DNA of 64,000 nt from an uncultured Chthonomonadaceae bacterium (lineage in GTDB: Bacteria > Armatimonadota > Chthonomonadetes > Chthonomonadales > Chthonomonadaceae). The translations under genes were made by a program, and so were the position numbers. Position 1 is the stretch's first letter. Each line of letters begins with the position of its first letter. The notes below the pieces were generated by a model. That model was not told the origin of the DNA. It saw nothing but the letters and a program-made list of their open reading frames with translations, and did not search any database. Below are positions 30,052-48,163 of the stretch, one piece after another. Location of the stretch: contig CAWIEK010000037.1 in assembly GCA_963835065.1 (NCBI GenBank), forward strand, positions 64,001 through 128,000, given 5' to 3'.

Positions 30052-31758
30052 TTGCTGAAGCTCAGGCGTACCCATCTTGGTGAACTTCTTGTGGACGAAG
30101 GTCTTGTCACGCCGCAACAACTCGACGTGGCGCTGGCGGAACAGAAACGTGCCGATAACAGCAAGCGCATCGGCGAAATACTCGTCGGCTTGCGGTTTCT
30201 GTCGGAACCGAACCTGCTGCGCGTGTTGTCGCAGCAGCTTGACTGCCCGATCATTGATCTGGGCAAAGAGCCGCCCGACCCGTCCGCGCTGGAAATCATC
30301 TCCAGCGATTTCGCCATGCGGCATCATCTGGTTCCCATCCGGCGCAACGATGAAACCCTTGTGGTGGCGATGGCGGACCCGCTCGATATTCATACCATAG
30401 ATGATTTGCGCTTATTGACGGGGCTGGACATCGCGCCCATGCTGGCGGCGGGAGCCGATATTCAGCGCGTGTGCGAACAGTTTTATATGTCCAAGATGAT
30501 CGCGGGCGTTCAGGACGCCGAGCGGACTGTCGAAGACGAAGATGAAGACGACGTAGCTAATCTGCAAAAGATGGCGAAGGAAGAACTCGTCATTCAGATG
30601 GTCAATCTGATTATCAACCAGGCCATTCAGGATCGCGCCAGTGACATTCACATCGAGCCGTTCGACAAAGAATTGCGCGTCCGTTATCGCGTGGACGGTG
30701 TGCTGCGCGAAGTGAGTTCGCCGCCCAAGCGCTTCCATGCCGCTGTGGTCAGCCGCATCAAAATTCTCGCCGACATGAACATCGCCGAGCGCCGCCTTCC
30801 CCTTGACGGACGTATGCGCATCAAAAGCAGCGGGCGGCAGATTGACCTGCGCGTATCCACCCTGCCGACGATGTACGGCGAAGGCGTGGTCATGCGTATT
30901 CTGGACAAGCAGACAGCCATGCTTGGGCTTACGGAATTGGGCATGGAGCGGGGCATGTTCGGCATCTTCCGCCGTTTGATTCAGGAGCCGCACGGCATTA
31001 TTCTGGTCACGGGGCCGACGGGTTCGGGCAAAACCACCACGCTGTACGCCAGCCTGAGCGAAATTTACAGCGTGGAAAAGAAGATCATCACGGTTGAAGA
31101 CCCGGTTGAATATCAGTTGAACGGCATCAATCAGGTGCTGGCGCAGCCGCACATCGGCCTGACGTTCGCCAACACCCTGCGCTCCATTGTGCGCCAGGAC
31201 CCCGATATTATTATGATCGGTGAAATCCGCGACAAGGAAACGGTAGACATCGCCATTCAGGCCGCCCTGACAGGCCACCTTGTCTTTTCCACCCTGCATA
31301 CCAACGACGCGGCGGGCGCGGTAAGCCGCCTGCTGGATATGGGCGCGGAGCCGTTTTTGGTCGCCAGTTCCCTTATCGGCACGATTGCGCAGCGCCTTGT
31401 CCGTATCAACTGCCCGCGCTGCCGCGAACCCTATGAAGAAAAGCCGGAAGTGCTGGAAGAAATCCACATTGACCCGGCCATGCTCAAGCGCGAGCCGCTG
31501 ATGAAGGGCGTGGGCTGCCCGGAATGTCGGGGAACCGGCTTCAAGGGACGCAGCGGCATTTACGAGATGATTGCCGTAGATGAAAACATCCGCCGCATGA
31601 TTACCGCCCGCGAACCGGCCACGCACATCAAGCAGTACGCCCAAAAAGAGCAGGGCATGATTTCGATGCTGATGGACGGGCGCGACAAAGTGCTGCAAGG
31701 CGCGACAACGATTCAAGAAGTGCTGCGCGTCTGCCAGCGCGAAGACTTTGATGCGTAA
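30052..31758 (+). CDS. gspE: Type II secretion / pilus assembly ATPase GspE/PulE
   Basis: MshEN-like LGELLV repeats, ASDIHIEP, Walker A GPTGSGKTT, RQDPDIIMIGEIRD, TGHLVFSTLHTN and tetracysteine motif. Confidence 0.95.
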   Translation: MLKLRRTHLGELLVDEGLVTPQQLDVALAEQKRADNSKRIGEILVGLRFLSEPNLLRVLSQQLDCPIIDLGKEPPDPSALEIISSDFAMRHHLVPIRRNDETLVVAMADPLDIHTIDDLRLLTGLDIAPMLAAGADIQRVCEQFYMSKMIAGVQDAERTVEDEDEDDVANLQKMAKEELVIQMVNLIINQAIQDRASDIHIEPFDKELRVRYRVDGVLREVSSPPKRFHAAVVSRIKILADMNIAERRLPLDGRMRIKSSGRQIDLRVSTLPTMYGEGVVMRILDKQTAMLGLTELGMERGMFGIFRRLIQEPHGIILVTGPTGSGKTTTLYASLSEIYSVEKKIITVEDPVEYQLNGINQVLAQPHIGLTFANTLRSIVRQDPDIIMIGEIRDKETVDIAIQAALTGHLVFSTLHTNDAAGAVSRLLDMGAEPFLVASSLIGTIAQRLVRINCPRCREPYEEKPEVLEEIHIDPAMLKREPLMKGVGCPECRGTGFKGRSGIYEMIAVDENIRRMITAREPATHIKQYAQKEQGMISMLMDGRDKVLQGATTIQEVLRVCQREDFDA

Positions 31759-31813
31759 TCGGTGTTGTACATCGGCAATGCAGCAGTGGTAGGGTAGGGC
31801 AACGGCCATCGAA

Positions 31814-32365
31814 GTGACGCTTACAGCGCAGGAGATGCAGAGGATTGCACAGGCAAAAGCCGCCCAACAACGGGCGCAGGATGCCAAAGCGCAACGGATA
31901 AGAGGCGATCCGCCTAACCCCCGCACGGGGTACAGGGGAGATGTAAAGGCCGTTGCTTCCGATGATGCGCTCTACCGCAGTGGTTGGGGAGCGATGGGAC
32001 AGGAAGAAGCCAGTTACCGGCGCGTTTCCGCCCAAGAGGTGAAAACCTATTCCGAACAAATCGGACATACGCTGGATGCGGATGCGGACGTTGATCAGCT
32101 TGGTACGGGCGGATGGCCGGGAATCGCGGATGCGACACATGCGGAAAAACAAGCCGCTCTTGGCAGTCCTGATCAGCCGATAGGCGTGAATTATTTGATG
32201 TGTGATAGCTGTCAGGACTTCTTTTCCAAACACGCGCTGTACACCCAACGAGTTCAGTATGTGGCTGATCCGAAGGTAACGCGCATTTTCTACCCGGATG
32301 GAACGGGCAGAGTAATACCGCATTCTGGCGCAATCACGATGTGGATTAATCTTTATGTGGCGTGA
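31814..32365 (+). CDS. Zn-dependent nucleic-acid deaminase toxin domain (SsdA-like), stand-alone
   Basis: HAEKQ..PIGV..MCDSC..FF..VADP..RIF.PDG gives the HxE + CxxC deaminase motif. Followed by an immunity-like gene. Confidence 0.75.
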   Translation: MTLTAQEMQRIAQAKAAQQRAQDAKAQRIRGDPPNPRTGYRGDVKAVASDDALYRSGWGAMGQEEASYRRVSAQEVKTYSEQIGHTLDADADVDQLGTGGWPGIADATHAEKQAALGSPDQPIGVNYLMCDSCQDFFSKHALYTQRVQYVADPKVTRIFYPDGTGRVIPHSGAITMWINLYVA

Positions 32366-32414
32366 TTGAGTAGCCGGCAATTCGGCTGAATATTGTGAGC
32401 AGTGACAAATTCGC

Positions 32415-33080
32415 ATGGCGCTCTTGGAAACATCAACTTCATTGCCGATACAACTCGCGCAGGCAATTCAAGCGGCGGAACATGCGCTGGAGTGTCAGCC
32501 GCAGGGGCACTTGCCTTTGTGTGTGCGCCGACGAATCGAGATGGAATTGGGGCCGGTACAGTTAGCTTACGATGGAACCCCATACGGTATTGGCTGGCAG
32601 AGGCGGGTTCATCTTGCTATTTTGAGCGTACATCGCGTTCAGCCGATTTGGGAAGCCGCGCTTCCGAGTAATGATGGAGTGGAGCGCATGATTCAGTTGG
32701 CTCAGGCTATTGTTGCTGACCATATTGACGCGCTTGACGCTAATCAGCAGATGGGCGACTTTTGGACGCAGGCAGATAACTGCCGCAGTCAATTGCGAAG
32801 ACGAACGGGCAATTCTGCCCCTGCCTGCGCGGGACATGCGGCGGCGGCGGCGGTGGCAGTGGCGTTGGCGGATAAAAAAGCGGTTGACTGCGCTTCCGGC
32901 GAGGACGACGAAACCAACAGCTATTATGATTGGGATGTGAGTTATTTTGCCAGCATTGCGTATGCGGGCGGCGGGCTTTCCAATTCTAATGCCGACATAG
33001 AAAAACGGCGCGAGTTCTGGAAATGGTACTTGCAGGAAGCTGTTCCTGATGCTTACCTTTTCGTATCCGGCGCGTCTTAA
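32415..33080 (+). CDS. Imm5-like immunity protein
   Basis: GHLPL..RRRI, RVQPIW, WDVSYFASIAYAGG and KRREFWKWYL.EAVP, which match my recollection of Imm5 proteins. Confidence 0.75.
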   Translation: MALLETSTSLPIQLAQAIQAAEHALECQPQGHLPLCVRRRIEMELGPVQLAYDGTPYGIGWQRRVHLAILSVHRVQPIWEAALPSNDGVERMIQLAQAIVADHIDALDANQQMGDFWTQADNCRSQLRRRTGNSAPACAGHAAAAAVAVALADKKAVDCASGEDDETNSYYDWDVSYFASIAYAGGGLSNSNADIEKRREFWKWYLQEAVPDAYLFVSGAS

Positions 33081-33141
33081 TAAGGAAGCCGGGGCGCAGG
33101 GCTGACAGCCAATTTGAATACTTTGGAAGAGTAAAGAAGAA

Positions 33142-34425
33142 ATGCCGGATTTTACTTATCAAGCAATGGACAAGGCAGGCAAGGCGATGACGGGCACGAT
33201 TGCCGCCCGTGACAGCCAGGAAGCCGCCGTTAAGGTGCGCGCATTGGGCGTGTACCCGACGAAAATCGCGACGGGGGGTGGCAAAGCCCTTTCCAACGGC
33301 AGCAGCAACGGCACGAGTGCCGCGCTGAACGGCAAACAAAAGGCTGGGACTTCAGCCACTGCCGCCGCGCCCGCCGCTCCCAAAGGCAAGAAGATTACGC
33401 GCGTTCAAATACTGCTGTTCACGCGGGAAATGTCGGATCTGCTGGAAGCCGGGCTGCCGATGGATCGCGCGTTTTCCGTGCTGATTGACCAGACGGACAG
33501 CGACTCGCTTCGCGCCATGCTGATGGCGATGCAGGGCGACATTCGCGCCGGGCAGCCGCTTTCGGACGCGCTGAAAAAGTTTCCGCGCGAGTTTACCGGA
33601 CTGTACGCCAACATGGTTCACGCGGGCGAAGTATCGGGGCAGCTTGCCAGCGTGATGACGCGGCTTGCCGACTTCATGGAAAAAGAGCAGGTACGCCGCA
33701 GTCAGGTCATGGCCGCGCTCACGTATCCTCTGGTGCTTATCGGCGTGGCGGTTCTGGCGGTGACGTTTTTGCTGGTCTTTGTAATCCCGATGCTTTCGGG
33801 CGTGTTCAAGGATTTGGGCTCGAATTTGCCGATTACGACCGTAATTCTGCTGGCGCTGTCGGGTTTTCTCAAGTCGTACTGGTATCTGGTGATTATGATC
33901 ATTGCGGGCATCGTGTTCGGTTTCCGTACCTGGGTACGTAGCCCAAGCGGGGAGCGGACATTTGACAATGCGCGCATGAAAATGCCGCTCTTCGGCGTAC
34001 TGGTGCAAAAGATCGTCGCGGCGCGGCTTGTCCGAACATTGGGAACGCTGCTGGGCGGCGGCGTGCCAATCTTGGAATCGATGGAAATCGCCGCTTCCGC
34101 TTTGGGCAATGTCGTGGCGATGGAAGCCCTGCTTGCCGCTCGGGGCGGGGTGCGGCAGGGCGAGACGCTGCACGAATCTATGGAGAAAACCGGGACGTTT
34201 TTGCCGCTCGTGATGCACATGACGGCGGTTGGCGAGGAAACCGGGCGATTGCCCAACATGCTGCTGCGCACGGCAGATACGCTGGACTTTGAAGTGGACA
34301 ACGCCATGCGCCGCATGACAAGCCTGGTGGAACCGCTTGTCGTGCTGCTGATGGGCGGCTTTGTGGGCTTCATCGTGCTTTCCATTCTGCTGCCGATCTT
34401 CAAGGCCAGTACCCTTGCCAAGTAG
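33142..34425 (+). CDS. gspF: GspF/PilC inner-membrane platform protein
   Basis: MPDFTYQA, LLEAGLP, MVHAGEVSGQL, ALTYP and VGEETGRL..LVEP. Confidence 0.95.
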   Translation: MPDFTYQAMDKAGKAMTGTIAARDSQEAAVKVRALGVYPTKIATGGGKALSNGSSNGTSAALNGKQKAGTSATAAAPAAPKGKKITRVQILLFTREMSDLLEAGLPMDRAFSVLIDQTDSDSLRAMLMAMQGDIRAGQPLSDALKKFPREFTGLYANMVHAGEVSGQLASVMTRLADFMEKEQVRRSQVMAALTYPLVLIGVAVLAVTFLLVFVIPMLSGVFKDLGSNLPITTVILLALSGFLKSYWYLVIMIIAGIVFGFRTWVRSPSGERTFDNARMKMPLFGVLVQKIVAARLVRTLGTLLGGGVPILESMEIAASALGNVVAMEALLAARGGVRQGETLHESMEKTGTFLPLVMHMTAVGEETGRLPNMLLRTADTLDFEVDNAMRRMTSLVEPLVVLLMGGFVGFIVLSILLPIFKASTLAK

Positions 34426-34569
34426 ATTTTGATAAGCTGGCTGTGATTGTGAATTGCGAGTGGCGGATGCCGCTGTTGTCCGGGAACATAGGACCGGAAG
34501 AAACGCGCTTTAGCATTGGAAACATTGCTGTTACCGGTTCCTTGTCTGAGAACCAAAGGAGATTTCGGA

Positions 34570-35031
34570 TTGAAAATCCATACCCCCATGATACATGGCC
34601 GCGCCACGCAGTCGCGCCGCCGGCAGGGTTTTACCCTGATTGAGATTCTCGTTGTCGTCGTCATCATCGCGGTGCTGGCAGCGGTTGTCGTGCCCAACGT
34701 TATTGGCCGCATCAAGGACGCCAAACAGTCCGCCGCGATTGCCAACATCAAGTCGTTCGACAACGCTATTGACCAGTTCAAGCTGGATACGGGTTCTGAC
34801 CCGGCCACGCTGGATGCGCTGACCACAAATCCCGGTACGCCCAAATGGAACGGTCCCTACTTCAAAGGAGCCAATTCGATTCCGTTGGATCCCTGGGAAC
34901 ATCCCTACCTTTACAAAATTCCCGGCGACAATGGCCGAGACTATGACATCAGTTCCGCCGGCCCCGACGGGCAGCCCGGCACTGCCGACGACATCAAAAG
35001 TTGGGACCTGACGGGAACCGGTGCGAAATAG
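34570..35031 (+). CDS. gspG: Major pseudopilin GspG
   Basis: GFTLIEILVVVVII prepilin motif, WNGPY, DPWEHPYLY and SAGPDG..DDI. TTG start after AAGGAG. Confidence 0.93.
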   Translation: MKIHTPMIHGRATQSRRRQGFTLIEILVVVVIIAVLAAVVVPNVIGRIKDAKQSAAIANIKSFDNAIDQFKLDTGSDPATLDALTTNPGTPKWNGPYFKGANSIPLDPWEHPYLYKIPGDNGRDYDISSAGPDGQPGTADDIKSWDLTGTGAK

Positions 35032-35039
35032 GACAACTA

Positions 35040-35160
35040 AGGTTTCAGGTTTCAGGGTTCAGGTTTCAGGGAGGAATAACCAGATTATCCTTCCTGCTTA
35101 CCAGACATAGAGAATGAATGAAGGCTTGACCTGAAACCTGAAACCTGAAACCTGAAACCT
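35040..35160. repeat. Inverted heptamer arrays (AGGTTTC)n spanning the gspG-gspH gap
   Basis: 35040-35070 matches the reverse complement of 35130-35160 at 30 of 31 positions. Confidence 0.9.
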
Positions 35161-35167
35161 AATCCCT

Positions 35168-35722
35168 ATGAACAAAGGCTTTACCCTAATTGAAATGGTC
35201 GTCGTTATCATCATCGTGGCGGTGATGACGAGCATCGTTGTGCCGGCGTATGCGCGGTTTTATGCGCGGGCGAGCTTCGATGGGCAGGTGCGCCAGGTGC
35301 AGGATGCGTTTGCGTATGCGCGGGAACAGGCACTGGAGCGGGATGCCACCGTGACGCTGGAATTCAGCCCGCAGACGGAAAGTTTCGATATTACGCTGCA
35401 GCCGCCCACGCCGCCCACCGATCAGCCCACGGCGTATGCCAACGCCAACGTGGATACCTCGACGTTTGCTTTGTCGCACACGGTTCAACTGGACAGTTCG
35501 GTTGGCGTTGTTGGATTTACCGCTACCGATACCAGTCAGGGCATCGTACCCGGCGGTTCGACAGGAAATGCAAACAGTAATCGGGGAGCGACAACGGTGT
35601 CTTTCCGCGCGGACGGCACTTCGGATGGCGCGCAATTGACCGTTGTCAGCGCCCAAAATCCCTATTCCGCGCATCTGACGCTGCATCCCGCCAACGCCCG
35701 CCTGACTCTGGACGAAAATTAA
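35168..35722 (+). CDS. gspH: Minor pseudopilin GspH/FimT-like
   Basis: GFTLIEMVVV, YAREQA and FRADGTS. Confidence 0.85.
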   Translation: MNKGFTLIEMVVVIIIVAVMTSIVVPAYARFYARASFDGQVRQVQDAFAYAREQALERDATVTLEFSPQTESFDITLQPPTPPTDQPTAYANANVDTSTFALSHTVQLDSSVGVVGFTATDTSQGIVPGGSTGNANSNRGATTVSFRADGTSDGAQLTVVSAQNPYSAHLTLHPANARLTLDEN

Positions 35723-35742
35723 TCCGCCGGGAAGATAAAACT

Positions 35743-36300
35743 ATGCGCCACATTGTTAGAAAAGGAGAAAAGGAGAAAAGGAGAAAAGGAGAAAATGGCA
35801 AGGATTTTCTTGTCTCCCTGTCTCCTCGTCTCTTCTTTTCCCCCTCTCGTTCCCGGCGTCGGGCGCAAGCCGGGTTTACGCTGGTCGAGATGATTGTGGC
35901 GACGGTTTTGCTGGCGATAGGCGTGGTTGCCACGCTGGGAGCCATTCACGCGGCTGCGACAACCACGCTGGCGGCGGAGGGCGCGCAAACTTCAGCGCTG
36001 CTGGCCCAAAAGCAGATCACGCAACTGCAATTACAGCCCAACCAAATATCGGGCGGCGACCAGTCGGGTGATTTCGGCGAGGAGTATCCCGGCTACAGTT
36101 TTCAGCAGAGCGTAGAAGCGACGGATTACCAGAATTTGTTCAAAGTGACCGTGACCATCAGTTGGGGAGGCAATAATAACCCGCACAAGCGCGAATACGT
36201 CACCTATCTCAGCAACGGCCAACTGGTTACAAACCCCAACGGCGTTACTCCCGGCAGCACAACGACAACCGGAACGCAGGGAGGCGCCAGTGGCAAGTAA
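35743..36300 (+). CDS. gspI: Minor pseudopilin GspI/PilV-like, with a repeat-derived leader
   Basis: GFTLVEMIVA preceded by KGEKEKRRKGE..LSPRLFFSPS. Confidence 0.8.
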   Translation: MRHIVRKGEKEKRRKGENGKDFLVSLSPRLFFSPSRSRRRAQAGFTLVEMIVATVLLAIGVVATLGAIHAAATTTLAAEGAQTSALLAQKQITQLQLQPNQISGGDQSGDFGEEYPGYSFQQSVEATDYQNLFKVTVTISWGGNNNPHKREYVTYLSNGQLVTNPNGVTPGSTTTTGTQGGASGK

Positions 36301-37297
36301 GAACAGGGAACAGGGAACAGGGAACAGGGAACAGAATGTTTCCTTCATCCTTCATCCTTCATCCTTCATCCTTCGGCGCAGCGCATTTACCCTGCTGGAA
36401 GTGCTGGTGGCGCTGATTATTTTTGGGATCATTACGGTGGCGCTGTCTACCGCACTGTCTGGCGCGCTGCGGGCGCATGTTCTGGCGGAACAGCGGCAGG
36501 AAGACAGCGAAAACGTGCGCGGACTGTTCGCCATTCTTGGGCGGGATTTGCAGAGCGCGTATGGATCGAAGAACGATCCGAATTCCATATTTATCGCGGG
36601 TGGAAGTGGGCAAAGCGGCCAGAACAGCGCGGGCAATGCGCTGCTGACGCTGGCGACACAAACGCATCGGATTACCACGACGGACACGAATGTGGACCCC
36701 ACTGCAAATCAGGCGGGACTAGGTAAAGCGCCGGGATTGGGTTCGATCAATGGGACGCAGGGGAGTAACGACCCGCCGCAGCAGCCGCTGGAATTTGTAC
36801 GCTACGATCTCGATCCGCAGGCAGGCACACTGACGCGGCTGACGCAAACCGTGCCAAATCTGCAAACAATACAATCGGCTGCGCCCGGCCCGGAAAACAT
36901 CATTGCCGGGAATATCGTCAGCCTGACCCTGCAATACTGGGACCCGTATCAGCAAAACTGGCGCGACAGTTGGGATTTCGAGCAGCCGAACTTGCCCGAC
37001 CCCGCCACCGCCGCGCAAACGATGGGCTTTCCGCAATCTACGACGAGTACGTCCGGGCAAAGCAGCGCGACATCGGCGAGTGGAACCACGACGGGAACGG
37101 GAAGCGGAGACATTGGATTGCCGTCCGCCGTGCAGATCATGGTAGTGCTGCGCAGCAGCAACGGCTCCCCGAAAAGTTATTCGATGATTCTGCCCATTGT
37201 GTCGCATGACCTGCAAGATTATCCCTACATGGGCGGACAGCAAATGGACCCGAACGCGCCGCCCGCGACAACTGGAACTACGGGAACAGGCGGTTAG
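36290..37297 (+). CDS. gspJ: Minor pseudopilin GspJ-like, with a repeat-derived leader
   Basis: AFTLLEVLVAL, RDLQSA, WRDSWD and LPSAVQI. Leader NREQGTGNREQ..SFILHPSSFIL. Confidence 0.85.
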   Translation: MASKNREQGTGNREQNVSFILHPSSFILRRSAFTLLEVLVALIIFGIITVALSTALSGALRAHVLAEQRQEDSENVRGLFAILGRDLQSAYGSKNDPNSIFIAGGSGQSGQNSAGNALLTLATQTHRITTTDTNVDPTANQAGLGKAPGLGSINGTQGSNDPPQQPLEFVRYDLDPQAGTLTRLTQTVPNLQTIQSAAPGPENIIAGNIVSLTLQYWDPYQQNWRDSWDFEQPNLPDPATAAQTMGFPQSTTSTSGQSSATSASGTTTGTGSGDIGLPSAVQIMVVLRSSNGSPKSYSMILPIVSHDLQDYPYMGGQQMDPNAPPATTGTTGTGG

Positions 37298-37397
37298 CAG
37301 AACAGTTTTCAAGCGGTATATTTTGCCGATAGCCGCAAACATCCTGTCACGGTGTTGGCAGTTCTGAGTTCAGAACTGAAGCAAAGATAAAAATCGC

Positions 37398-39356
37398 ATG
37401 GGTAACTTTGTACCAAAAACAGCATATCGTTCAAGTCCGCTGTGGCGCAAACCGCGTCAAAGACGCCTTCATGCCGTCCCGGTTGTTATGCTGCGGGCTG
37501 ACGGGCAGGCGCTTATTCCTGTCATTTTCGTGATGCTGATTTTGACCGTTGTGGGCGTGTCCTTCGGCGTCTCGGCGCACCGCAATGCGCAGGCCAGCGG
37601 CAATTACGTCAACCAACTCCAGCGCTATTATGTGGCGCTCGGCGCAATGAACTATGCCATGAGCGCGCTGGCGGAAACCAGCAACAACGGCTCCACGTAT
37701 GGCATCGTGCCGCCCCTGCCCGACACCGACTCGAATGGTTGGGCGCAGGTTGGCGATGCGTGGGTCAAGATTGATGTGATAGATACAGGCGCGTTCCTGA
37801 ACTTAAACAGCGTGACGCTGGCGAATTTACAGCGTATGCCGGTTTTTCGAGATAACCCCGATCTGGCGAATGCGGTCATAGCATGGCGAACCAGCGCGAC
37901 TGCAACGACGGGAGCCACAGGGTCTACAGGCGGAGCATCCGGCGCGTCCTCCTCGTCGGGCACGGCTGCAGGCGACGATCCCTACCAGAGCCTTTCACAA
38001 CCGTACACGCTGAAAGCCGCGCCCTATGATACGGTTGAAGAGCTGTTGCTGGTGCAGGGAATGACGCCCACGCTGCTGTATGGCAACGCTGCCGGCTCGC
38101 CCATTTCCGCATCCGATACGGAAACCGACTCCGCCAATGGCGTAACCTCAACGACTATAAATTCCGGCTCCGGTTCTACGGGCACTTCCTCTACCGGCAG
38201 GGCGGCGGCGCGTTCGCGGGGCGCGAAACTGTCCCGGCAAGGCGGTCTTGGAACGGTCTCTTCTGCAGGTGGCACGGGTGGAACCGGGGGTACGGGAGGC
38301 GCAGGAGGAACGGGCGGCGCGGCGGGCGCAGGCGGAACCGCTGCCGCCGCCGCTGAAGATTTCAGCGACATTTACACCGATAGCAAGGTTGTGCTGGCGC
38401 AGTTGTTTACGACGGTATCCCGCGAGCGCAACGTCGCTTCGGATGGCAACCCGCGCATCAACGTCAATACGGCCACCGCGCAGGATTTTCAGGATCAGCT
38501 TGGCTTAACGGCGGCGCAGGCCAATGGTCTTATCCGCTTTCGCACTCCGCAAACAACGGGGACAGGCGCGCAGGGCGGCGCAGGTAATACCGGTGGGGCT
38601 ACTCGCCCCCCTGCGGCAACAACTCCCAACCTGCGCAGCGCCTATGATCCGCTCGATGCATTGGACGTGACCCGGCAGGCGGCAGCCGGAGCCGGGGGAA
38701 CAGGCACAGCGCGTCCACCCACAACCGGCGCAACAGGCGGTACGGGTGGGGCAGGTGGTGGAACTGGCGCTGGTACAGGTGGTGGAACCGGCGGCGCAGG
38801 CGGCGCGAAAACCGGCAGTGGGGGAGCAGCGCAGGCGCAGTCCTTTAAAACTATCGCGGATTTGCTGGAAGTGACGACATTTACGCGCACCGTGATGCAG
38901 CGCGTGGCGGACAAACTCAGCGTGGATGATAAGGTTTTTCATGAAAACCTGGTCAACATCAACACCGCGCCCGCCGAGGTGCTGGCAACCGTGCCCGGCA
39001 TGACCCACAACATTCTGAACGCGATTTTGAATTACCGGCAGAACGGGACGTATTTTCAGGATTTAGGCGACTTCTTTGCCTTGCAGGATTTGCAGCGCAC
39101 GGATTTTCAAGCCGTCGTCGCTTCGCTGACAACGAAAACCTCCACCTACTACGTGCATATTAAAGTGCGTACAGGGGAACAGCAAAGCGCGTATGCGGTT
39201 TCCGCCCTGGTGGAAATGACGGATAATGGCCCGCATGTGCTGCAATGGCGGGAAGTGCCGCGCGTTCCCGGCTGGTCTACCTGGCTCAAGCCGCCCACGC
39301 TGCCCACGCCCACATTGGGACAAAACAGTTCCGGCAGTTCGAGCAGCGCACAGTAA
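37398..39356 (+). CDS. gspK: Minor pseudopilin GspK with Gly/Thr-rich inserts
   Basis: GQALIPV, LNLNS, TVEELLLVQGMT, RINVNTA and VNINTAPAEVL. Confidence 0.85.
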   Translation: MGNFVPKTAYRSSPLWRKPRQRRLHAVPVVMLRADGQALIPVIFVMLILTVVGVSFGVSAHRNAQASGNYVNQLQRYYVALGAMNYAMSALAETSNNGSTYGIVPPLPDTDSNGWAQVGDAWVKIDVIDTGAFLNLNSVTLANLQRMPVFRDNPDLANAVIAWRTSATATTGATGSTGGASGASSSSGTAAGDDPYQSLSQPYTLKAAPYDTVEELLLVQGMTPTLLYGNAAGSPISASDTETDSANGVTSTTINSGSGSTGTSSTGRAAARSRGAKLSRQGGLGTVSSAGGTGGTGGTGGAGGTGGAAGAGGTAAAAAEDFSDIYTDSKVVLAQLFTTVSRERNVASDGNPRINVNTATAQDFQDQLGLTAAQANGLIRFRTPQTTGTGAQGGAGNTGGATRPPAATTPNLRSAYDPLDALDVTRQAAAGAGGTGTARPPTTGATGGTGGAGGGTGAGTGGGTGGAGGAKTGSGGAAQAQSFKTIADLLEVTTFTRTVMQRVADKLSVDDKVFHENLVNINTAPAEVLATVPGMTHNILNAILNYRQNGTYFQDLGDFFALQDLQRTDFQAVVASLTTKTSTYYVHIKVRTGEQQSAYAVSALVEMTDNGPHVLQWREVPRVPGWSTWLKPPTLPTPTLGQNSSGSSSSAQ

Positions 39357-39469
39357 GAGAATAAGTGATGAATGTTGAGTGATGAATGATAAATAGGACG
39401 CTTATTCATCATTCATTATTCATCACTCAGCATTTTTATCCATACCCTTATGTTTTGAAGGAGTTTCGG

Positions 39470-42109
39470 ATGCGTACTAATACTTCCGCCCGGAGCGCTG
39501 CCTCGACGACGATTGCCGTTGATCTTGGGGCGACTGCCGTGCGCGTCGTGGAAATGGATTTCGATGGGGGTGGCACGGCGCGTCTGACGCGGCGGGGCGT
39601 CGCGCCGATTCCTCCCGGAACGTGGAATGATCTCAGCACGAACCGTGACGCCATGAGCGGGGCGATTACGCAGGCGTTATCGGCGGCGGGTATCGTAGGA
39701 AGATCGGTAGTTGCCTGCCTGCCGCGCCGCCTGGTGACGATGCGGTTTGTGCGCCTGCCCAACGCCCCCCCGGAACAGATGCGGGGCATGGTGGAGTTGG
39801 AAGCGCAGGAGTATGTATTATTCCCGCTCGACGATGTGATTCTCGATTACCATGTTATCGTCAATCCGAACGCGAACGTAATGGGCGGCGATGACATGAA
39901 CACCGTTCTGCTGGCGGCGGCGCGGCGTTCGCTAATCAATGACGTGATGGCCGTATTCGACCGGGCGGGGCTGGAACTGCTGCAATTGTCCGTGTCGGCG
40001 CTCGCGCTTGCAGAAAATGCCCGCGACAGCCTGGAACCCACCGCGCTGATTGACGTGGAACCCGGCGAATTGGATGTGGCGGTAATCGCGGACGGGCAAT
40101 TGCTGTTTACCCGCGCTTCCGCGCTGGATATTGGCGGGGTGCGCCCGGAAGTGGCCGAGCGGCGTATCGTGGAAGAAGTGATGCGCTCGTTTACGGCCTA
40201 CCAGAACGAGTTTCGTCAGCGCCCCATCGCGCATGTCACCATCGGGGGGGAAAGCGCGACGGGCGGGGCGGCGGAAGCTTTGTCCAGCGCTCTGACGGAC
40301 ATGCTGGAAATGCCTGTCGCGCCGCTTGCGCCGCGTGGCGTTCCCGCCGGGGATGCGGAAGGCCGCGCGTGGGCAACAGCTATTGGCATGACCCTGCAAT
40401 CTCGCGTGGGCAGTATCGCGCCCATCAGCCTGGTTCCCAACGAGCGCGCGATGCGCAAAGCAAATCAGGCAAAACTACAGCGTAAGCGCCTGATGGCGCT
40501 TGCCGGTGCGGCGGCGGCAGTGGGGGTACTGTGGGTTGGCTCAAAAGCCTACGCTGAGGCGCAAAAGACTGCCGCCTTAACGCGGGAAGAAAACGCGGGG
40601 CTGCAGGACATTACCGAGCGCCTGACCAAACTCAAAACACAGCATGACAAAGTTCAGGCGGTTTACGATGAGGTCGGCAATGGCCTGGATCGCAACCATC
40701 CCGCCGTAGATGTGGTGACGGCGCTCAATGCGGCCCTGCCCGCAGCGGCGGACATCTGGCTGACGCAGTTTCAATTCGAGCGGGGCGGCGCGCTGACGCT
40801 GCACGGCGAAACCAAGCGCGCGATGGCGGCTACGCAATTGGTACTGGCGCTGCAAAAATCCGGCGCGTTTACGGATGTTCGGCTGACGTATGTGGGCGAC
40901 TCGCAGGAAAACTCGCCCACGCAAACACCGGCTCCCGCGCCCGCTCCTGTCCCGGCAGCCCCGGTGACAACGACGGCAGCGTCCACGACGCCAACCGTGC
41001 CGACGCTTCCCGCGCCCGCTTCCTTCGGCGGATTTCCCGGCGGCAATCGGGGCGGCTTCAATCCTGGCGGCGCGGGCGCGAACCCCGGTGGCAATGCGCA
41101 GACGCCGGTGATTATCACCCCGACCAATGGAGCCGCCTTCACGCCTCCGAACGGCGGGAACTTCGGACCGCGCAATCGAGGCGCGTTTACGCCGCCAAAC
41201 GGGGGAGGATTTACGCCGAACGGCACACCCAATTTCCCCACAGGCGGGGGAGCGACTCCCGGCAACGCGCCTGCCCCAGTCTTTCCGGGCAATGCCCCGG
41301 ACCAACCCGCAATTCCCATTCCTTCGCCCAATCCTCCACCCGGCGGCGCCTCCGCTGCGGGGAGTAACGGAACACGCCAGGCAAGCCTGCAAACTAAGTC
41401 GGGGCATTTGGTATTAGCAGGCTGGCAGCAGGATAACGGCGGCAATGGCAACGGCGGTAACGGCGGCTTCGACCCTAACGCCAATAACGGCAATGGCGGA
41501 AACAACGGAGGCGGCAGGCGTAACCGCCGCAATCGCGGGGGAAATAACGGCGGCAACTTCAACGGCGGTAACGTTGACCCCAACGGCAACAACAACGGCA
41601 ACGGAAACAACGGTAATAACGGCAACAATGGCAACGGCAACACGAACACCACTGGGCCTACGTACAGCAATGGCAGCATTTACGGAGCCGCGCCCACCAA
41701 TCCTTTCGCCAATGGACAAATTGGCGGCAACGGCAATGGAAACGGGAACGGCAATGGCAATGGCAATCCCGGCGGCGGGTTCAACAGGAGATTCAATAGA
41801 GGGGGTGGGGGCAACGGCACGGTTCCTTCCGTCAGCGCGCCGGCAGGAGGCATTCAGCGCGAGCGCGTCATTCGCAGAAACGTTCCGATTGTCCGCCCGA
41901 AAGTGAATTCACCGAAACAAACCCTCACGAGCTTCGTCATTACTTGTCGAGTGAACATGAAGCGCGCGGATTTGATTCCCGCCGGCGCGACGGTATCTGC
42001 CCCTGACACCAAGCCGAATACGGCCCCTCGCGCGACGAAAACTACCCGGCGCGCGGGCAGCGCGAACAATGCCATACAGAATGGGGGCGACGATGCAGAC
42101 AATGAGTAA
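39470..42109 (+). CDS. GspL-like PilM (actin-like)-TM-PilN fusion with a long low-complexity insert
   Basis: IAVDLGA, actin-fold PilM motifs, a TM helix and IWLTQFQF..LTLHG..FTDVRL, then ~340 aa rich in P/G/N, then SFVITCRV. Confidence 0.8.
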   Translation: MRTNTSARSAASTTIAVDLGATAVRVVEMDFDGGGTARLTRRGVAPIPPGTWNDLSTNRDAMSGAITQALSAAGIVGRSVVACLPRRLVTMRFVRLPNAPPEQMRGMVELEAQEYVLFPLDDVILDYHVIVNPNANVMGGDDMNTVLLAAARRSLINDVMAVFDRAGLELLQLSVSALALAENARDSLEPTALIDVEPGELDVAVIADGQLLFTRASALDIGGVRPEVAERRIVEEVMRSFTAYQNEFRQRPIAHVTIGGESATGGAAEALSSALTDMLEMPVAPLAPRGVPAGDAEGRAWATAIGMTLQSRVGSIAPISLVPNERAMRKANQAKLQRKRLMALAGAAAAVGVLWVGSKAYAEAQKTAALTREENAGLQDITERLTKLKTQHDKVQAVYDEVGNGLDRNHPAVDVVTALNAALPAAADIWLTQFQFERGGALTLHGETKRAMAATQLVLALQKSGAFTDVRLTYVGDSQENSPTQTPAPAPAPVPAAPVTTTAASTTPTVPTLPAPASFGGFPGGNRGGFNPGGAGANPGGNAQTPVIITPTNGAAFTPPNGGNFGPRNRGAFTPPNGGGFTPNGTPNFPTGGGATPGNAPAPVFPGNAPDQPAIPIPSPNPPPGGASAAGSNGTRQASLQTKSGHLVLAGWQQDNGGNGNGGNGGFDPNANNGNGGNNGGGRRNRRNRGGNNGGNFNGGNVDPNGNNNGNGNNGNNGNNGNGNTNTTGPTYSNGSIYGAAPTNPFANGQIGGNGNGNGNGNGNGNPGGGFNRRFNRGGGGNGTVPSVSAPAGGIQRERVIRRNVPIVRPKVNSPKQTLTSFVITCRVNMKRADLIPAGATVSAPDTKPNTAPRATKTTRRAGSANNAIQNGGDDADNE

Positions 42110-42698
42110 ACGAGATAGAACCTTAATAATCGTGATGGTTCTCGTGCTGCTCGTGGCGGGTGTGCTGGTACTAAGCCCTTCAGGAACCGGGGGCGCGGGC
42201 GCGGGCAAGCAGTTGCCCTTAGCGGATGCGCAAAAGCAGCGAACGGAAAAGAAAAAGCAGTACAAGCAGCTTACGGATGACATGGCCGCGCAGCAGCCGC
42301 GTATCGAGCGCATGACGTACAATATGGCGCCGGAACAATTGAGCGCGACGGTGACGGAAAATTTGTACCTGCTGGCGGACAAAGCCGGTGTGCATATCCG
42401 CGAAATCAAGCCGCTGCGCGCCAAAACGCTGAAATCCGGGAGCATTGCCCGCGTTCCCCTGGAAGTGCGCTTTCGCGCTCCGTTCCAGCCCAACGTGATG
42501 AAATTTTTGTACTTTGCCGAAGACCCGGCCAACAAGATTGTGGTAGATAAAGTGAGCATTACTTCGACGGACACCCACTTGAAGTCGGTGGATGTGGCCG
42601 CGCAAATCAGCGTATTTACGCGCTCCTTGACGGGTTCCTCGTCGGGCGCAGGAGAAGGAGACACCAGTGACAGCACGCCATCAACCAACCGGGGATAA
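42093..42698 (+). CDS. GspM/PilO-like protein
   Basis: MSKRDRTLII + TM helix, coiled coil and VPLEVRF..VMKFLY ferredoxin-like pattern. Confidence 0.75.
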   Translation: MQTMSKRDRTLIIVMVLVLLVAGVLVLSPSGTGGAGAGKQLPLADAQKQRTEKKKQYKQLTDDMAAQQPRIERMTYNMAPEQLSATVTENLYLLADKAGVHIREIKPLRAKTLKSGSIARVPLEVRFRAPFQPNVMKFLYFAEDPANKIVVDKVSITSTDTHLKSVDVAAQISVFTRSLTGSSSGAGEGDTSDSTPSTNRG

Positions 42699-43596
42699 AA
42701 ATCTTTCTGGAAAGTCAACGGGAAGAAACCTGCCGCTTTTCGCGCAGCCTGTAAATGCCTCCAAGTTTCCCACTCCCTTGACCGGGAAACCGGGCGTCGG
42801 CTGGTCCCGTCCCGCCGTCTGGAGCCTGGCGGTCATTACCTGCGGCGTACTGCTGGCGCTTGCTCGCCCTGACAACGCGCAGAATGTTCCGGCTTCCCAA
42901 ACATCAGGAACCCGTTCCGGTTCCACGCTCAGGGTGCAGGCGCGAACCACGCCTTCTGCCGCCACGCCTGCCGTGACACCTGCGGGCAATATGCCCGAAG
43001 AAAGCCGCCGCTCCGTTGATTTTTATACGCAGACTGTGCGCGGCAACCTGTTCAATGCGCCGCAGCCTCCGGCTCTGCCTCCGGTGAAATTGCCACCCCC
43101 GGTCGTGGTGGTACAGCCCAAGCCACCCGTTGTGCCGCCGGTTGAAATCAATCCGTTCGCGGACTGGTCGTACACGGGAACCATGACATCGGGCGATCAA
43201 GTGACCGCGCTGATCGAGAATACCAAGACCAAAGAAGGCCAGTTCGTCAAAGCCGGCGACAGCTTCATGGGATCGCAGGTCGCCTCCATCACGGATCAGC
43301 AAATCATCCTGCAATCCGGTAAAACATCGCGCATGTTGGCAAAGTCCGACAATTGGGCGGTAACACCTCTGGATCGGAGCGCCATTCCGTCCGCCGGCCC
43401 GCAGGCCGCGCCGCAGGCAGCCGCGCCGCAGGCCGTGCAGGTGCAGATTGATATGAGCGCCCTGCAGAACCTGGGCAATCGTGGACGCGGAGGACGCGGA
43501 GGCGGTCAGGGCTTTACCTTGCCCAACGGACGCACGTTCAACCCGCAGCAGTGGCAGCAACGGTCACAGCGCATGAACCAGAACTTCAATCAGTAA
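42667..43596 (+). CDS. GspC/PilP-like protein
   Basis: TM helix, RGNLFN, Pro-rich linker, YTGTM..ALIEN..FVKAGD. Position before the secretin. Confidence 0.6.
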   Translation: MTARHQPTGDKNLSGKSTGRNLPLFAQPVNASKFPTPLTGKPGVGWSRPAVWSLAVITCGVLLALARPDNAQNVPASQTSGTRSGSTLRVQARTTPSAATPAVTPAGNMPEESRRSVDFYTQTVRGNLFNAPQPPALPPVKLPPPVVVVQPKPPVVPPVEINPFADWSYTGTMTSGDQVTALIENTKTKEGQFVKAGDSFMGSQVASITDQQIILQSGKTSRMLAKSDNWAVTPLDRSAIPSAGPQAAPQAAAPQAVQVQIDMSALQNLGNRGRGGRGGGQGFTLPNGRTFNPQQWQQRSQRMNQNFNQ

Positions 43597-43730
43597 CTGA
43601 GAAGTTGATAGTTGATAGTTGATAGTCACTGCATCTCTATCACTATCAACTATCAACTGATTGTGACGCCCCTTTTGTGCCTCGTGAGCCTGTTCCCTTC
43701 ATGCAACTGCGGAGGGAACCGCGCTAACCA

Positions 43731-44087
43731 AAGTTTTATACCAACGGCGCAAGCCAGAAAGCAGGTCTGAACAAAAGTATTGGGGATGCGGCATGGAGCA
43801 TGTTCCGCTTTGCCCTTACGTACAAGGCTGCAAGCGCCGGGCGTAAGGTGGTGGAAGTCAACCCTGCCTACACATCTCAGGATTGTTCCTCATGCGGCGA
43901 ACGTGTTCCGAAAGCCCTCAAAGAGCGGGTGCATTTCTGCCCGTGCTGTGGGTTGAGGCTCGACAGAGACACCAACGCCGCTATGAACATTCTCACCCTC
44001 GGTATGGACAAACATAGCATCGCTATGGGACAACATAGCGTCAAGGTTTACCTTATCGAACCGTTTAAGCAGGTGATTGTCACATAG
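43731..44087 (+). mobile_element. tnpB: IS200/IS605 tnpB 3' remnant with degenerate right end
   Basis: NGASQKAGLNKSIGDAAW..VNPAYTSQDCSSCG..CPCCG..DRDTNAA. Ends GATTGTCAC. An upstream in-frame TAA at 43725 removes the N-terminal part. Confidence 0.88.
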
Positions 44088-44124
44088 ATTTAGTTGTTCA
44101 TCAAGGGGCCGCGTGGCGGCTCGG

Positions 44125-47100
44125 ATGGACCAGATTGCGGAGGATAATGCCTTGACACACGAATCAAACAGCCTGGCTGCCAGTTATCGGCGCAGAGCCT
44201 GGTGCGCCCGGTTGGGAACCGCCACTTTTGCCACCGGCCTTGTCGTGGCTCTGGCAGGGGCGCAGGCGCAGGATGCGGTAACCCCGGCCCCTCAGCCCGC
44301 TCAGTCCACAACCGATAAGAAGCCTGCCACAACGGCCACGCCGGCAAAGCCGCCCACTTCTTCGGGCAGCAGAGCCGCCGGTACTACGGGCAGGCAAAAT
44401 GGAAGCGCGAACGCGCGGCGTACCGGCCAAAATAACCGTCCAAACAGCAATACTCCCACACGAGGGGCGAACGCGGGTGGCGCGGGTACGCCGGGGCTGA
44501 GCATTGTGCCGATGCAGGGCGGCACGGCTCCCGGACGCGGCGTACCGGGCGCGGGTGGCGTACCGGGCGCAGGCGGACAGTTCACCGGACAGCCGAGCGG
44601 TTTTGGCGGGGCGGGTGGATTCGGCGCAGGCGGCGGCTTTGGACAGGGCGGGCGCGGCAACGGGACCACATTCGCGTTCGAGTTTCGCGGCGCGGACATT
44701 GACAACGTTCTAAAATTCTTTTCCAACAATTCGGGCTTGACCATCACCAAAAACCCCGCCCTGACAGGCCCGGTGACGATTCTCAATCCCACGCCCGTAA
44801 GCCTGGATAAGGCGTTCCTGATCTTGCAGTCCGTTTTGGCCGTGCGCGGATTTACGGCATTGCAGAGCAACGGCGTGCTGTCAATCCTGCCGTTTCAGGG
44901 CGCGAAAACCAGTACGCCTTTGTTTAATTCGGGCATTAACGAAGACGGAACCACGCGGGTTGACTCGCGCAACCAGTTTATGACGCAGGTGATTCCGGTT
45001 GAAAACGTGGATGCGGAAGCCCTGGCGCGAGAACTTAAAGAGCTTTCCAGTCCGGGTTCCAGCCTGATCGGCAGCGCGGGAACCAATTCGCTGATTATCA
45101 CGGATACCGCCAGCAACGTTTCGCGCTTTATTGCCCTCGTGGAGGCGCTGGACAAGTCCTCCAACAGCACAACCGACCTGAGAATCTATCCCCTGACGCG
45201 CTCCGATGCAACGTCCATTGCGCAGATCATTACCGATCTGTACAGCAAGATTACCACGCGCGGACGCGGAGCCGGGGGAGGAGCGCCACAGCCCGGACAG
45301 CCCGGTTTCAATCCCGGCAATCCGCAGCAGGGGCAGGCGGCAAGCGCCGGCCGTCCCGCAGTCGTAGCGACGGCGGATACGGGAACCAACTCGGTTATCG
45401 TCGTGGCCTCACCCGATAATCAGGTGAAAATCGCCCGTGACATCATCACGCGGCTGGATGGCGATGATTCCAACCGGCTGGATACCGTGACGCGCAAGAT
45501 CAACTTCGCGGACGCGCAAACGGTTTCGGATGAAGTGAACAGCGTTCTTTCCAATTCGCGTCCCGGTCAGGGATCGTCGGTAAATCCCTCGTTCCAGCAG
45601 CGTACATTTGGCGGCGGCGGGTTCGGCGGCTTTGGTGGGTTCGGTGGCTTCGGCGGCGGTGGCGGCGGTGGCAGCACCGGCAGTTCCGACCCGTTCGGTA
45701 AGGTGGTTGCCGACCCGCGCACCAATACCGTGCTGATTACCGCGACCAAAGACCGCCTGGCGCGCATCAATGACCTGATTGACAAATTGGATCAGGAAGT
45801 GCCGGTTGAGTCGACAACGTTCGTCTTCCCGCTGAAAAACGCGAACTCCTCGGATGTCGCGCAGGCGCTTGGGCAGGCGTTCCAAACAACCAGCAACTCG
45901 AACAACAACAACAATGGATTCAACTTCTTCGGCAGTTCCAACCAGACCGCCAAAAATCCCTTTGGACGGCAGGGCAATGGAAGCGGTTCGCAGCGTCAGC
46001 TTGGTTCTGTCGGCACAGGCCGGGCCATCGGCGGCAGGGGCGTAGGACGCTCCAATGTGCCGCCCGGCCCGCCCGATGCGCCGGACGGAAGCGGCGGTGA
46101 CGGCAACATTCAGACGAATGGCGGCTCGGCTGTGCCGCAGGGCATTCCCGGCGTTCTGACCGATCAGGGCTTTGTGCCTACGGAAGCCCCCGGCGATGCT
46201 TCCGGCAACGTGAACACCAACGGACAGCCGACGCGCCAGATTTTCGGCGGTTTCGGCGGTTTCGGCGGCGGGCGCGGGCAGCAGCGGTTGGGGCAGGCGC
46301 AAACCCCGCAGTACGGTCAGGGACGCAACGGCGGCTACTCGAACCTGCTGCAGTTGCAGGGGAATGTGTTCGTCACGCCCTCGCCCGAAGGCGATAACCT
46401 GATTATCACCACGCTGCCGCAGAACTACGAGGCGGTACGCCAGATCATTGACGCGCTGGACATTGTGCCCCGCCAGGTCATGATCGAAGTAATCATTGCG
46501 GAAGTGACGCTCGACAGCGACCAGAAACTGGGCTTTACGCTGGGCGGCAACTTCCTCAAGCTGTTTAATACGGCCAACACGGGGCAAGGGCAAATAAACG
46601 TGCCTGCGCCGGGGCTTGGCACGACCTTCGACCCGGCGGCGACGGGGGCGCAGTTCGTCATCAGTGGCGGGAATTACAACACGCTGTTACAGGCGCTGAC
46701 GACGGACAACAAGGTGCATGTTCTCGCCACGCCCCGCGTGTTCGCGTCCAACAACCAATCGGCGGACATTACCATCGCCACGCAGATTCCGTTCTTGCAG
46801 GGAACGACGGCGAGCGCCTTCTCGTCCGTTGTCAGTCAGACGGTGCAAACGGCGCAGGTGGGCTATGACCTGACCGTAACGCCGCGCATCACGCGGCAGG
46901 GGTTGGTGACAATCGCCTTGACGCAGGACGCCAACGCGCTTGTGCGCTTCCAGACACTGGGTTCGGGCGTGAACGCGAGCGTGTACCCGGTTATCAACAC
47001 GCGCAACACGGACACGACCGTAACGGTACAGGACGGAGAAACCATCGTTATCGGCGGCTTGATTCAGGACAACCGCGCCGTGAATATCAACAAAATTCCC

Positions 47101-47571
47101 GTACTGGGCGATATTCCCATCATCGGGCAGTTCTTCCGGTCACGGGAACTGACGCGCAACAAAACGGAACTGATGATCTTCATGACGCCGCATGTGGTCA
47201 ATACGGTGGAAGAAGCGCGTCGGCTGACGGTGCAGCAGGGCGCTCCCCTGACCCGGCAGATTCCCGACCTGTCGCGCCAGCAGCCCAACCTCGCCCTGCC
47301 GACCGTTCCGAAGGGTTATAAGCCCGATCCGAACGCGCCCGTGATTCGCGATCCCTCCGGCAAGGTGATTCCGAACCTGGACGACAAAAAGAACAAAAAC
47401 ACGAGTGACCCGAACAAACTCGGCCCGCTGACCACCCCCGGCACAAACGGCGGAACCGGAACGGGTACAGGCACGGGAAATGGAACCGGCACTGGCACAG
47501 GAACCGGCACGAACAACGGAGGAACGGGAAGCGGAACCGGAACGAACAATGGAGGAACGGGTACGCCGTAG
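44125..47571 (+). CDS. gspD: Secretin GspD with long Gly/Phe-rich disordered inserts (start approximate)
   Basis: FEFRGADIDNVL N0 domain, repeated N domains (ADTGTNSVIV, ADPRTNTVLI), QVMIEVIIAEV, DGETIVIGGLI, KIPVLGDIPIIGQFF and TELMIFMTP. Confidence 0.93.
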   Translation: MDQIAEDNALTHESNSLAASYRRRAWCARLGTATFATGLVVALAGAQAQDAVTPAPQPAQSTTDKKPATTATPAKPPTSSGSRAAGTTGRQNGSANARRTGQNNRPNSNTPTRGANAGGAGTPGLSIVPMQGGTAPGRGVPGAGGVPGAGGQFTGQPSGFGGAGGFGAGGGFGQGGRGNGTTFAFEFRGADIDNVLKFFSNNSGLTITKNPALTGPVTILNPTPVSLDKAFLILQSVLAVRGFTALQSNGVLSILPFQGAKTSTPLFNSGINEDGTTRVDSRNQFMTQVIPVENVDAEALARELKELSSPGSSLIGSAGTNSLIITDTASNVSRFIALVEALDKSSNSTTDLRIYPLTRSDATSIAQIITDLYSKITTRGRGAGGGAPQPGQPGFNPGNPQQGQAASAGRPAVVATADTGTNSVIVVASPDNQVKIARDIITRLDGDDSNRLDTVTRKINFADAQTVSDEVNSVLSNSRPGQGSSVNPSFQQRTFGGGGFGGFGGFGGFGGGGGGGSTGSSDPFGKVVADPRTNTVLITATKDRLARINDLIDKLDQEVPVESTTFVFPLKNANSSDVAQALGQAFQTTSNSNNNNNGFNFFGSSNQTAKNPFGRQGNGSGSQRQLGSVGTGRAIGGRGVGRSNVPPGPPDAPDGSGGDGNIQTNGGSAVPQGIPGVLTDQGFVPTEAPGDASGNVNTNGQPTRQIFGGFGGFGGGRGQQRLGQAQTPQYGQGRNGGYSNLLQLQGNVFVTPSPEGDNLIITTLPQNYEAVRQIIDALDIVPRQVMIEVIIAEVTLDSDQKLGFTLGGNFLKLFNTANTGQGQINVPAPGLGTTFDPAATGAQFVISGGNYNTLLQALTTDNKVHVLATPRVFASNNQSADITIATQIPFLQGTTASAFSSVVSQTVQTAQVGYDLTVTPRITRQGLVTIALTQDANALVRFQTLGSGVNASVYPVINTRNTDTTVTVQDGETIVIGGLIQDNRAVNINKIPVLGDIPIIGQFFRSRELTRNKTELMIFMTPHVVNTVEEARRLTVQQGAPLTRQIPDLSRQQPNLALPTVPKGYKPDPNAPVIRDPSGKVIPNLDDKKNKNTSDPNKLGPLTTPGTNGGTGTGTGTGNGTGTGTGTGTNNGGTGSGTGTNNGGTGTP

Positions 47572-48070: not shown

Positions 48071-48163
48071 ATTTCCCTCCGTTTTCAAATATAGCACAAA
48101 TCCAGCCGCTTTGCCAGCAAAAATAATCTTGCGAACCTGAACACGGATTGGAAGCCATGCCCG

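Follow-up and report, generated by a model that had tools for sequence, protein, structure and literature searches.

A toxin-immunity-like pair between gspE and gspF of an uncultured Chthonomonadaceae bacterium suggests an accessory slot in a type II secretion operon

The interval between the secretion genes gspE and gspF of an uncultured Chthonomonadaceae bacterium holds two genes that, judged by sequence and predicted structure, form an SsdA-SsdAI-type pair, i.e., a deaminase toxin tip without a carrier followed by an Imm5-type immunity gene. Because a sister species has an unrelated toxin-immunity-like pair at the same spot, the interval is likely a swappable slot. The explanation that we favor, and hold to be somewhat more probable than all others combined, is that of an accessory slot whose carrier-less SsdA-type tip and SsdAI-type gene would be expressed by read-through of the operon and kept for the benefit of immunity, with no export by the type II secretion system (T2SS).

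Both gene families are already known, and the new part would be the arrangement: no toxin-immunity cargo between gspE and gspF was found in the literature as covered by titles and the beginnings of abstracts (with few subscription papers). Orphan toxin-immunity cassettes usually go together with their carrier genes, and a fixed slot in a core secretion operon that holds unrelated pairs in close relatives would, if true, offer an easy way to immunity or identity that differs by strain.

Results and discussion

An SsdA-SsdAI-type pair inside a secretion operon

The window analyzed here is a stretch of 64,000 nucleotides from one contig of this genome (G000 in the following), namely C37 at 64001-128000; the family Chthonomonadaceae belongs to Armatimonadota. 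Between the gspE stop at 31758 and the gspF start at 33142 lies a gap of 1383 bp that is filled by ORF1 and ORF2, both on the plus strand, which is the strand of the operon (Table 1). An earlier note on the same DNA had described two co-oriented genes splitting gspE and gspF, of which the first would contain HAEKQ and MCDSC zinc motifs and have an in-frame TAG upstream at 31790. Our coordinates agree, both motifs lie in this gene (residues 109-113 at 32138-32152 and residues 129-133 at 32198-32212), and the TAG is present as claimed. The note had missed an ATG at 31751 that is in frame with ORF1 and reads through only 13 codons before this TAG. That ORF1 belongs to a longer precursor or is joined to GspE through a frameshift could be ruled out since stops are found in all three frames from gspE to ORF1 and since the toxin gene of the sister species does not share the frame of ORF1 with respect to gspE. 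Besides the GTG at 31814, an ATG at 31994 could serve as the start of ORF1, whose product would then be without SGW.

Table 1. Coordinates of the gspE-gspF interval and its surroundings in the window
Feature	Position	Strand	Evidence
gspE, T2SS ATPase (MshEN domain), flanks the slot on the left	30052..31758	+	Pfam T2SSE E 2e-136, TIGR02533 E 8e-189
13-codon ORF, ATG overlaps the gspE stop, in frame with ORF1, ends at TAG 31790	31751..31792	+	sequence
Left border, 12-nt stretch 3' of the gspE stop resembling its G002 counterpart	31759..31771	+	alignment to relatives
ORF1, SsdA/BaDTF2 deaminase toxin tip, 183 aa, GTG start, domain only	31814..32365	+	Pfam PF24120, 7JTU_A, AlphaFold/Foldseek
SGW motif of BaDTF2, S56-G57-W58 of ORF1	31979..31987	+	sequence comparison
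ORF1 substrate-binding loop, residues 86-108, net charge -5, Ala105 at the SsdA Tyr342 position	32069..32137	+	sequence comparison
ORF1 zinc/catalytic motifs H109-A-E111 and C130-x-x-C133	32138..32212	+	sequence comparison
ORF2, Imm5/SsdAI-type immunity gene, 221 aa	32415..33080	+	Pfam Imm5 E 5e-34 (5.1e-34), 7JTU_B E 1e-5 (9.6e-6)
Right border, 31-nt gspF leader	33111..33141	+	likeness resumes at 33110 (G002) or 33111 (X1-X3 contigs)
gspF, intact, flanks the slot on the right	33142..34425	+	Pfam T2SSF, TIGR02120
Rest of the operon: gspG, pseudopilins, gspK, PilM/PilN-like L, M-like, HofP-like, secretin gspD	34516..47571	+	profile matches

The surrounding operon is of T2SS type in its content (GspE, F, G, H, I/J-like pseudopilins, K, a PilM/PilN-like L and an M-like protein) and includes a secretin with a GspD N0 domain at 44077-47571, though GspE and GspF score just below their NCBIfam cut-offs (628 vs 630 and 399 vs 424). 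A T2SS is reported for Armatimonadetes in a section of PMC6668835. Divergent from the operon lies a sigma-54 gene (27434-28876) that is kept in the two congeneric genomes G001 and G002. Two smaller features lie near the secretin gene. Between the HofP-like gene and gspD is a remnant (43600-44090) that looks like the zinc ribbon at the C-terminus of an IS605-type TnpB and has no match in G002, and downstream of gspD is a 131-aa ORF (47702-48097) that is absent from G002 and has no Pfam match.

ORF1 matches the Pfam family SsdA_C (PF24120) above the cut-off (E 1.7e-10), and its residues 10-169 match the SsdA structure 7JTU_A (phmmer, E 3.3e-24). The top Foldseek matches of its AlphaFold model (pLDDT 90.7) are 9C63 and 7JTU (E 4e-17 to 2e-15; TM 0.75-0.78 by query length at 36-37% identity), with DYW domains next. 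The protein also bears the marks of BaDTF2, namely the SGW motif (S56-G57-W58), a helical insertion (helix 73-83) and a C-terminus without DYW, and all four residues of the zinc site are present (H109, E111, C130, C133). ORF2 matches Pfam Imm5 above the cut-off (E 5.1e-34) as well as SsdAI (7JTU_B, E 9.6e-6). These matches of ORF1 to profile, structure and fold, together with those of ORF2, identify the two as an SsdA-SsdAI-type pair at the level of sequence. The earlier note had likened ORF1 to the SsdA clade, called its neighbor Imm5-like and proposed HMM and structure searches; these now agree on both genes, with the deaminase fold of ORF1 being predicted. Asp150 and Glu152 of SsdAI are not kept in ORF2, and the idea of a DNA-mimic loop in the immunity protein that co-varies with the toxin loop was dropped because both positions also vary in two other Imm5 proteins.

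ORF1 is a bare toxin domain that begins at the domain border within an open frame of 190 aa and is missing the N-terminal trafficking domain of a deliverable polymorphic toxin. As the earlier note had stated, it has no signal peptide or carrier domain: a hydrophobic N-terminal stretch is missing, and Rhs-core, Hint and eCIS searches gave no match at the locus. Among 376 matching representatives we listed the best 150 and from these scanned 40 homologs, mostly the best and the longer matches: 18 of the 40 have PAAR, Rhs, eCIS_core, T7SS/WXG100 or Phage_GPD domains, and most of the others have SsdA_C alone. Across 401 genomes of the phylum, five other SsdA matches occur in four other genomes, four of them in open frames of 617-1080 aa and one in a frame of 261 aa at a contig edge, compared to the 190 aa of ORF1. 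Other genomes of the phylum have long-carrier toxins in tandem, with tips of SsdA type and with Imm5 genes, at L196 (G309:C8) and L198/L206/L207 (G156:C1).

The sole close relatives of ORF1 are P0001 and P0002 (78-79%), which have 123 aa as called and start at the equivalent of Met61. In a quick tree of 71 rows these three proteins form one clade with a long stem (SH-aLRT 100), and they have a changed loop and a C-terminal extension in common. In a word-index search for longer close homologs of ORF1, none of the 985 candidates scored (weak evidence), none of 387 pattern matches in genome contigs was confirmed, and a DNA pattern scan of metagenome contigs gave no match. Within G000, no other copy of the insert was found beyond short low-complexity pieces.

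An intact catalytic core next to a changed substrate loop

Residue roles of SsdA are described in sections of PMC12494967 and PMC7901873, and ORF1 has kept Lys289, SGW, His346, Glu348, Cys367 and Cys370. The aromatic cluster with which SsdA binds ssDNA (His332, Tyr334, Tyr342, Phe343) is missing: the Tyr342 equivalent is Ala105 (Ala likewise in P0001 and P0002), the Phe343 equivalent is Asp, and the aromatics of His332 and Tyr334 are absent. In addition, the loop formed by residues 86-108 has a net charge of -5 and is the most acidic when compared with all 148 scored homologs (median 0). These changes predict that ssDNA binding by ORF1 is weak or altered and make both its activity on ssDNA and its value as a base editor doubtful. 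The earlier proposal of ORF1 as a candidate base-editing enzyme is weakened by the Ala at the Tyr342 position and by the acidity of the substrate loop. The aromatic cluster is a feature of the SsdA mechanism rather than a criterion for family membership: of 149 other homologs, 125 have an aromatic residue at the Tyr342 position and 24 a non-aromatic one (Ala or other), the long carrier-borne toxin L196 among them, so that Ala105 is no proof of attenuation. With its core intact and its loop changed, ORF1 could serve as a test of substrate choice by BaDTF2 enzymes.

None of the three proteins in the 78-79% clade has lost its catalytic residues, and positions conserved in the family vary less within this trio (38 of 47 unchanged vs 39 of 63; p 0.037), a weak sign of purifying selection. 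If immunity alone were selected, the toxin should decay, and the kept catalytic residues and conserved positions count against such an immunity-only view.

The foremost alternative, unlikely as we consider it, is an intracellular toxin-antitoxin-like module in which an active deaminase, maybe with a substrate other than ssDNA, would act in addiction, abortive infection or a stress/mutator role tied to operon expression. The weak sign of selection would suit such a module, as would the kept catalytic and SGW residues, the common loop and C-terminal extension of a well-supported clade, the short stand-alone form that P0001 and P0002 also have and, in the toxin family of the sister species described below, the short or stand-alone loci. 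A PADLOC search for defense systems matched none of the four cargo proteins of the two species, though, and the toxin-first order and the families involved are typical of contact-dependent toxins. The loss of Tyr342 likewise speaks against an active module, given that this residue is essential in SsdA, where an Ala mutant was without activity (reported within PMC12494967).

Variable cargo across relatives

The distance from gspE to gspF could be measured in 47 genomes from the order and the family, at 28 out of 30 loci in one set (contig ends cut the other two) and at 19 out of 19 in another. It amounts to -8 to 288 bp in 45 of them, and the two outliers, G000 and G002 (1311 bp), belong to the same genus, which is sampled by three genomes (G000, G001 and G002). 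The gspE genes of G002 and G000 are 92% identical, and G001 has a gap of 104 bp with a hairpin. Such hairpins lie at L003:3211-3314 in G001 and at L005:3208-3383 in G024, and we take them to be of the GTAG-type REP-like kind. The inserts of G002 and G000 have no tblastx likeness to each other, and the likeness between the two genomes ends at 31754 and resumes at 33110.

Four public sequencing runs were compared as well; a search for RNA runs with this sequence gave none. In run X3, record 18 is a 3159-nt contig of ca. 96% identity that joins 31748 to 33111 by 622 nt vs 1362 nt in G000, a filling represented by one contig at a depth of 2.2. Contigs of similar identity from runs X1 and X2 have unlike sequence from 31748/31754 and likeness again at 33111; X1-X3 may share one filling. 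Bins 32124-32377 and 32505-33012 are uncovered in all four runs, which by itself proves nothing, and X1 has a tentative match of 60-120 nt near 31870-32000. A protein scan of metagenome contigs gave 32 loci with 28 measurable gaps, all of at most 216 bp; these loci are probably not from this genus, since their gspE identity is at most 83% (14 of the 32 forming a distant 45% group).

Counting G000, G002 and X3, the interval thus comes in three or more fillings, next to an empty state in other relatives. The earlier note had proposed this comparison and had counted relatives that never carry cargo as speaking against its reading; a sister species does carry cargo, and the different pair at the same interval in G002 favors the note's suggestion of an orphan cassette with the operon as its landing site.

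The G002 insert consists of two ORFs without Pfam match (L002:3213-3857 and L002:3915-4478, on G002:C14). The family of the first ORF has a nearly invariant HExGH and later EYH and is found in cyanobacteria, Bacteroidota, actinobacteria and myxobacteria. At 28 other loci, this domain is the C-terminus of a longer ORF (at least 140 aa upstream) in 17 cases and short or stand-alone in 11, and 5 of 13 scanned long ORFs have eCIS_core, WXG100 or TssD. A homolog of the second ORF lies downstream of the HExGH gene at 22 of the 28 loci at E<1e-4 and is weak at the other six. From this pattern we consider the G002 pair a putative toxin tip with its cognate immunity gene. The model of the tip has a pLDDT of 94.5, no clear counterpart emerged from fold searches (best Z 7.5, to helical bundles), and the ESM Atlas lead is the zincin-type tip Tox-MPTase4 at 0.90, on 13% of members. 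Slots between gspE and gspF may be minable for new toxin families, as G002 gave an unannotated HExxH tip along with an unannotated cognate partner.

To place the slot in its genomic background, we aligned G000 to contig C14 of G002 over 531 kb with 302 collinear junctions, 41 one-sided insertions and 24 reciprocal gaps. Four of 22 examined reciprocal gaps have unrelated cargo, and toxin-immunity-like pairs on both sides are found at gspE-gspF only (scored by eye and with Pfam for part of the ORFs). In this genus, accessory genes often lie between core genes, but two polymorphic pairs at one site are not common. One in-gene insertion of ca. 209 aa that is missing in G002 (G000:C49:176893-177519) reads by eye like an intein/Hint domain.

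Borders, origin and expression of the insert

The third codon position of the cargo genes points to a foreign make-up (GC3 0.54-0.55 vs 0.72-0.74 in gspE and gspF). Likeness to relatives ends at 31748-31754 save for the 12-nt stretch at the left border, a motif that occurs 14 times in G000 vs 7.4 expected under a fifth-order Markov model and lies mostly inside long ORFs; the right-border 20-mer is single-copy in G000. Site-specific recombination was considered and rejected: the integron integrase profile TIGR02249 stays below its cut-off in all three genomes (G000 being 92% complete), and the insert borders have no recombinase, no meaningful terminal direct or inverted repeats and no repeated site. 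Neither toxin has a homology arm on the cargo. Synonymous identity between G000 and G002 has no peak near the slot and so gives no sign of recent recombination in the flanking genes. On the plus strand of the insert no sigma-70-like promoter was found, the one terminator-like match is weak and lies inside ORF2, and gspF retains its own 31-nt leader.

Since indels between conserved genes are common in the genus, two independent neutral insertions are possible. More generally, the inserts could be debris without selected function, i.e., two to three independent toxin-locus fragments in a tolerant intergenic site of a genome rich in small accessory genes. The hairpins that the interval takes in G001 and G024 would fit, and so would the many indels between G000 and G002, the borders without recombinase or repeats and the weak GTG start of ORF1, whose coupled upstream ATG is ended by TAG. 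We nevertheless rate this as improbable, because both readable fillings are intact pairs of tip and partner on the operon strand with the same borders, the sole such case among the 22 reciprocal gaps examined, and their four genes have no frameshifts.

The favored account begins with a polymorphic toxin locus (of PAAR, Rhs, eCIS or T7SS type) from whose 3' end the pair would have been excised, to be captured once between gspE and gspF by illegitimate recombination. Later exchanges of fillings would take place by homologous recombination, with gspE and gspF as the conserved flanks. Hotspots that lack mobile elements are described as exchanging their contents when the core genes on either side recombine (PMC5635113), and replacement by homologous recombination is reported for effector-immunity modules of Vibrio cholerae (PMC5361080). 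Read-through from the operon promoter would yield the immunity protein, which may bind SsdA-type domains in the cytoplasm and protect the cell from incoming SsdA-type toxins. The toxin ORF, with its weak start, would be cytoplasmic if made and likely weak on ssDNA. Immunity rather than a secreted weapon is likely the main benefit of the slot.

Export by the T2SS and other delivery routes

Export by the T2SS needs a periplasmic substrate. Neither toxin has a Sec/Tat signal as judged from hydropathy and twin arginines, and the maximal Kyte-Doolittle 11-mer of ORF1 reaches -0.02 vs 3.99 in GspG. The toxins of G000 and G002 have no N- or C-terminal tag in common, and 45 of 47 related operons are without cargo. 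With neither signal peptide nor carrier domain, homology arm or shared tag, T2SS export is not supported, and neither is the T2SS/pilus-linked toxin that headed the earlier note's list of readings.

It is therefore very unlikely, in our view, that the pair encodes a strain-specific effector which the operon's own machine, or another route working with it, exports or displays, while the immunity gene protects the producer and the pair serves kin discrimination. The location in a complete secretion operon with a secretin would suit this, as would the presence of two toxin types at a single site, a trait of effector loci. That no TssC match was found in G000-G002 could also be cited in its favor, but G000 has other delivery routes: there are 21 Rhs-core matches in G000 (vs 1 in G001 and 4 in G002) and an eCIS locus. 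Marginally less remote, yet still quite improbable, is a rotating slot at the gspE-gspF junction of this Chthonomonadaceae clade in which carrier-less tips co-expressed with the T2SS (the SsdA variant with its acidic loop in one species, a new HExxH tip and immunity family in the other) undergo leaderless export or act as strain-identity markers for kin discrimination. T2SS export without a signal peptide would, if true, be a real surprise, and nothing here shows export.

The eCIS locus of G000 (G000:C15:24000-46000) is apparently complete and encodes an eCIS_core (DUF4157) protein of 667 aa. Two Rhs loci have tandem orphan tips with partner genes (G000:C53:449000-470600 and G000:C49:355700-366000).

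Comparison with known systems

Several known systems resemble the slot in part. The pair itself is closest to SsdA-SsdAI of Pseudomonas syringae (BaDTF2; 7JTU, 9C63; PMC7901873, PMC12494967), with which it shares the fold, SGW, Lys289, HAE, CxxC and the adjoining downstream SsdAI/Imm5 gene. ORF1 differs by having no PAAR or other carrier, by Tyr342->Ala, Phe343->Asp, the acidic loop and the C-terminal extension, and by its place in a T2SS operon of a genome in which TssC was not found.

Toxin-immunity cassettes that stand alone have been described as a class (PMC3482391; see also PMC3967940 for orphan Rhs), which likewise has a tip followed by an immunity gene, no trafficking domain and toxin types varying among relatives. 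Unlike orphan rhs/cdi cassettes, ORF1 and ORF2 do not lie behind a full-length toxin gene and have no conserved homology arm; they are flanked by two housekeeping secretion genes, unlike the Rhs orphan arrays on contigs C53 and C49 of G000.

At T6SS modules of Vibrio cholerae (PMC5361080), unrelated effector-immunity pairs also occupy one position in a secretion cluster and are exchanged by homologous recombination without specific sites. The effectors there are substrates of the cluster's own machine, whereas the cargo described here has no T2SS link and no arrays of old immunity genes. Like hotspots of horizontal gene transfer (PMC5635113), the slot combines fast cargo turnover between two conserved genes with the lack of integrase or repeats, but it lies within an operon and holds one two-gene cassette at a time, with both readable fillings being toxin-immunity-like. 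Integron gene cassettes differ from the insert, in which terminal repeats are missing and for which IntI stays below the cut-off. Another ssDNA deaminase toxin, borne by a T7SS carrier, is described in a recent preprint (bioRxiv 10.64898/2026.09.29.755374).
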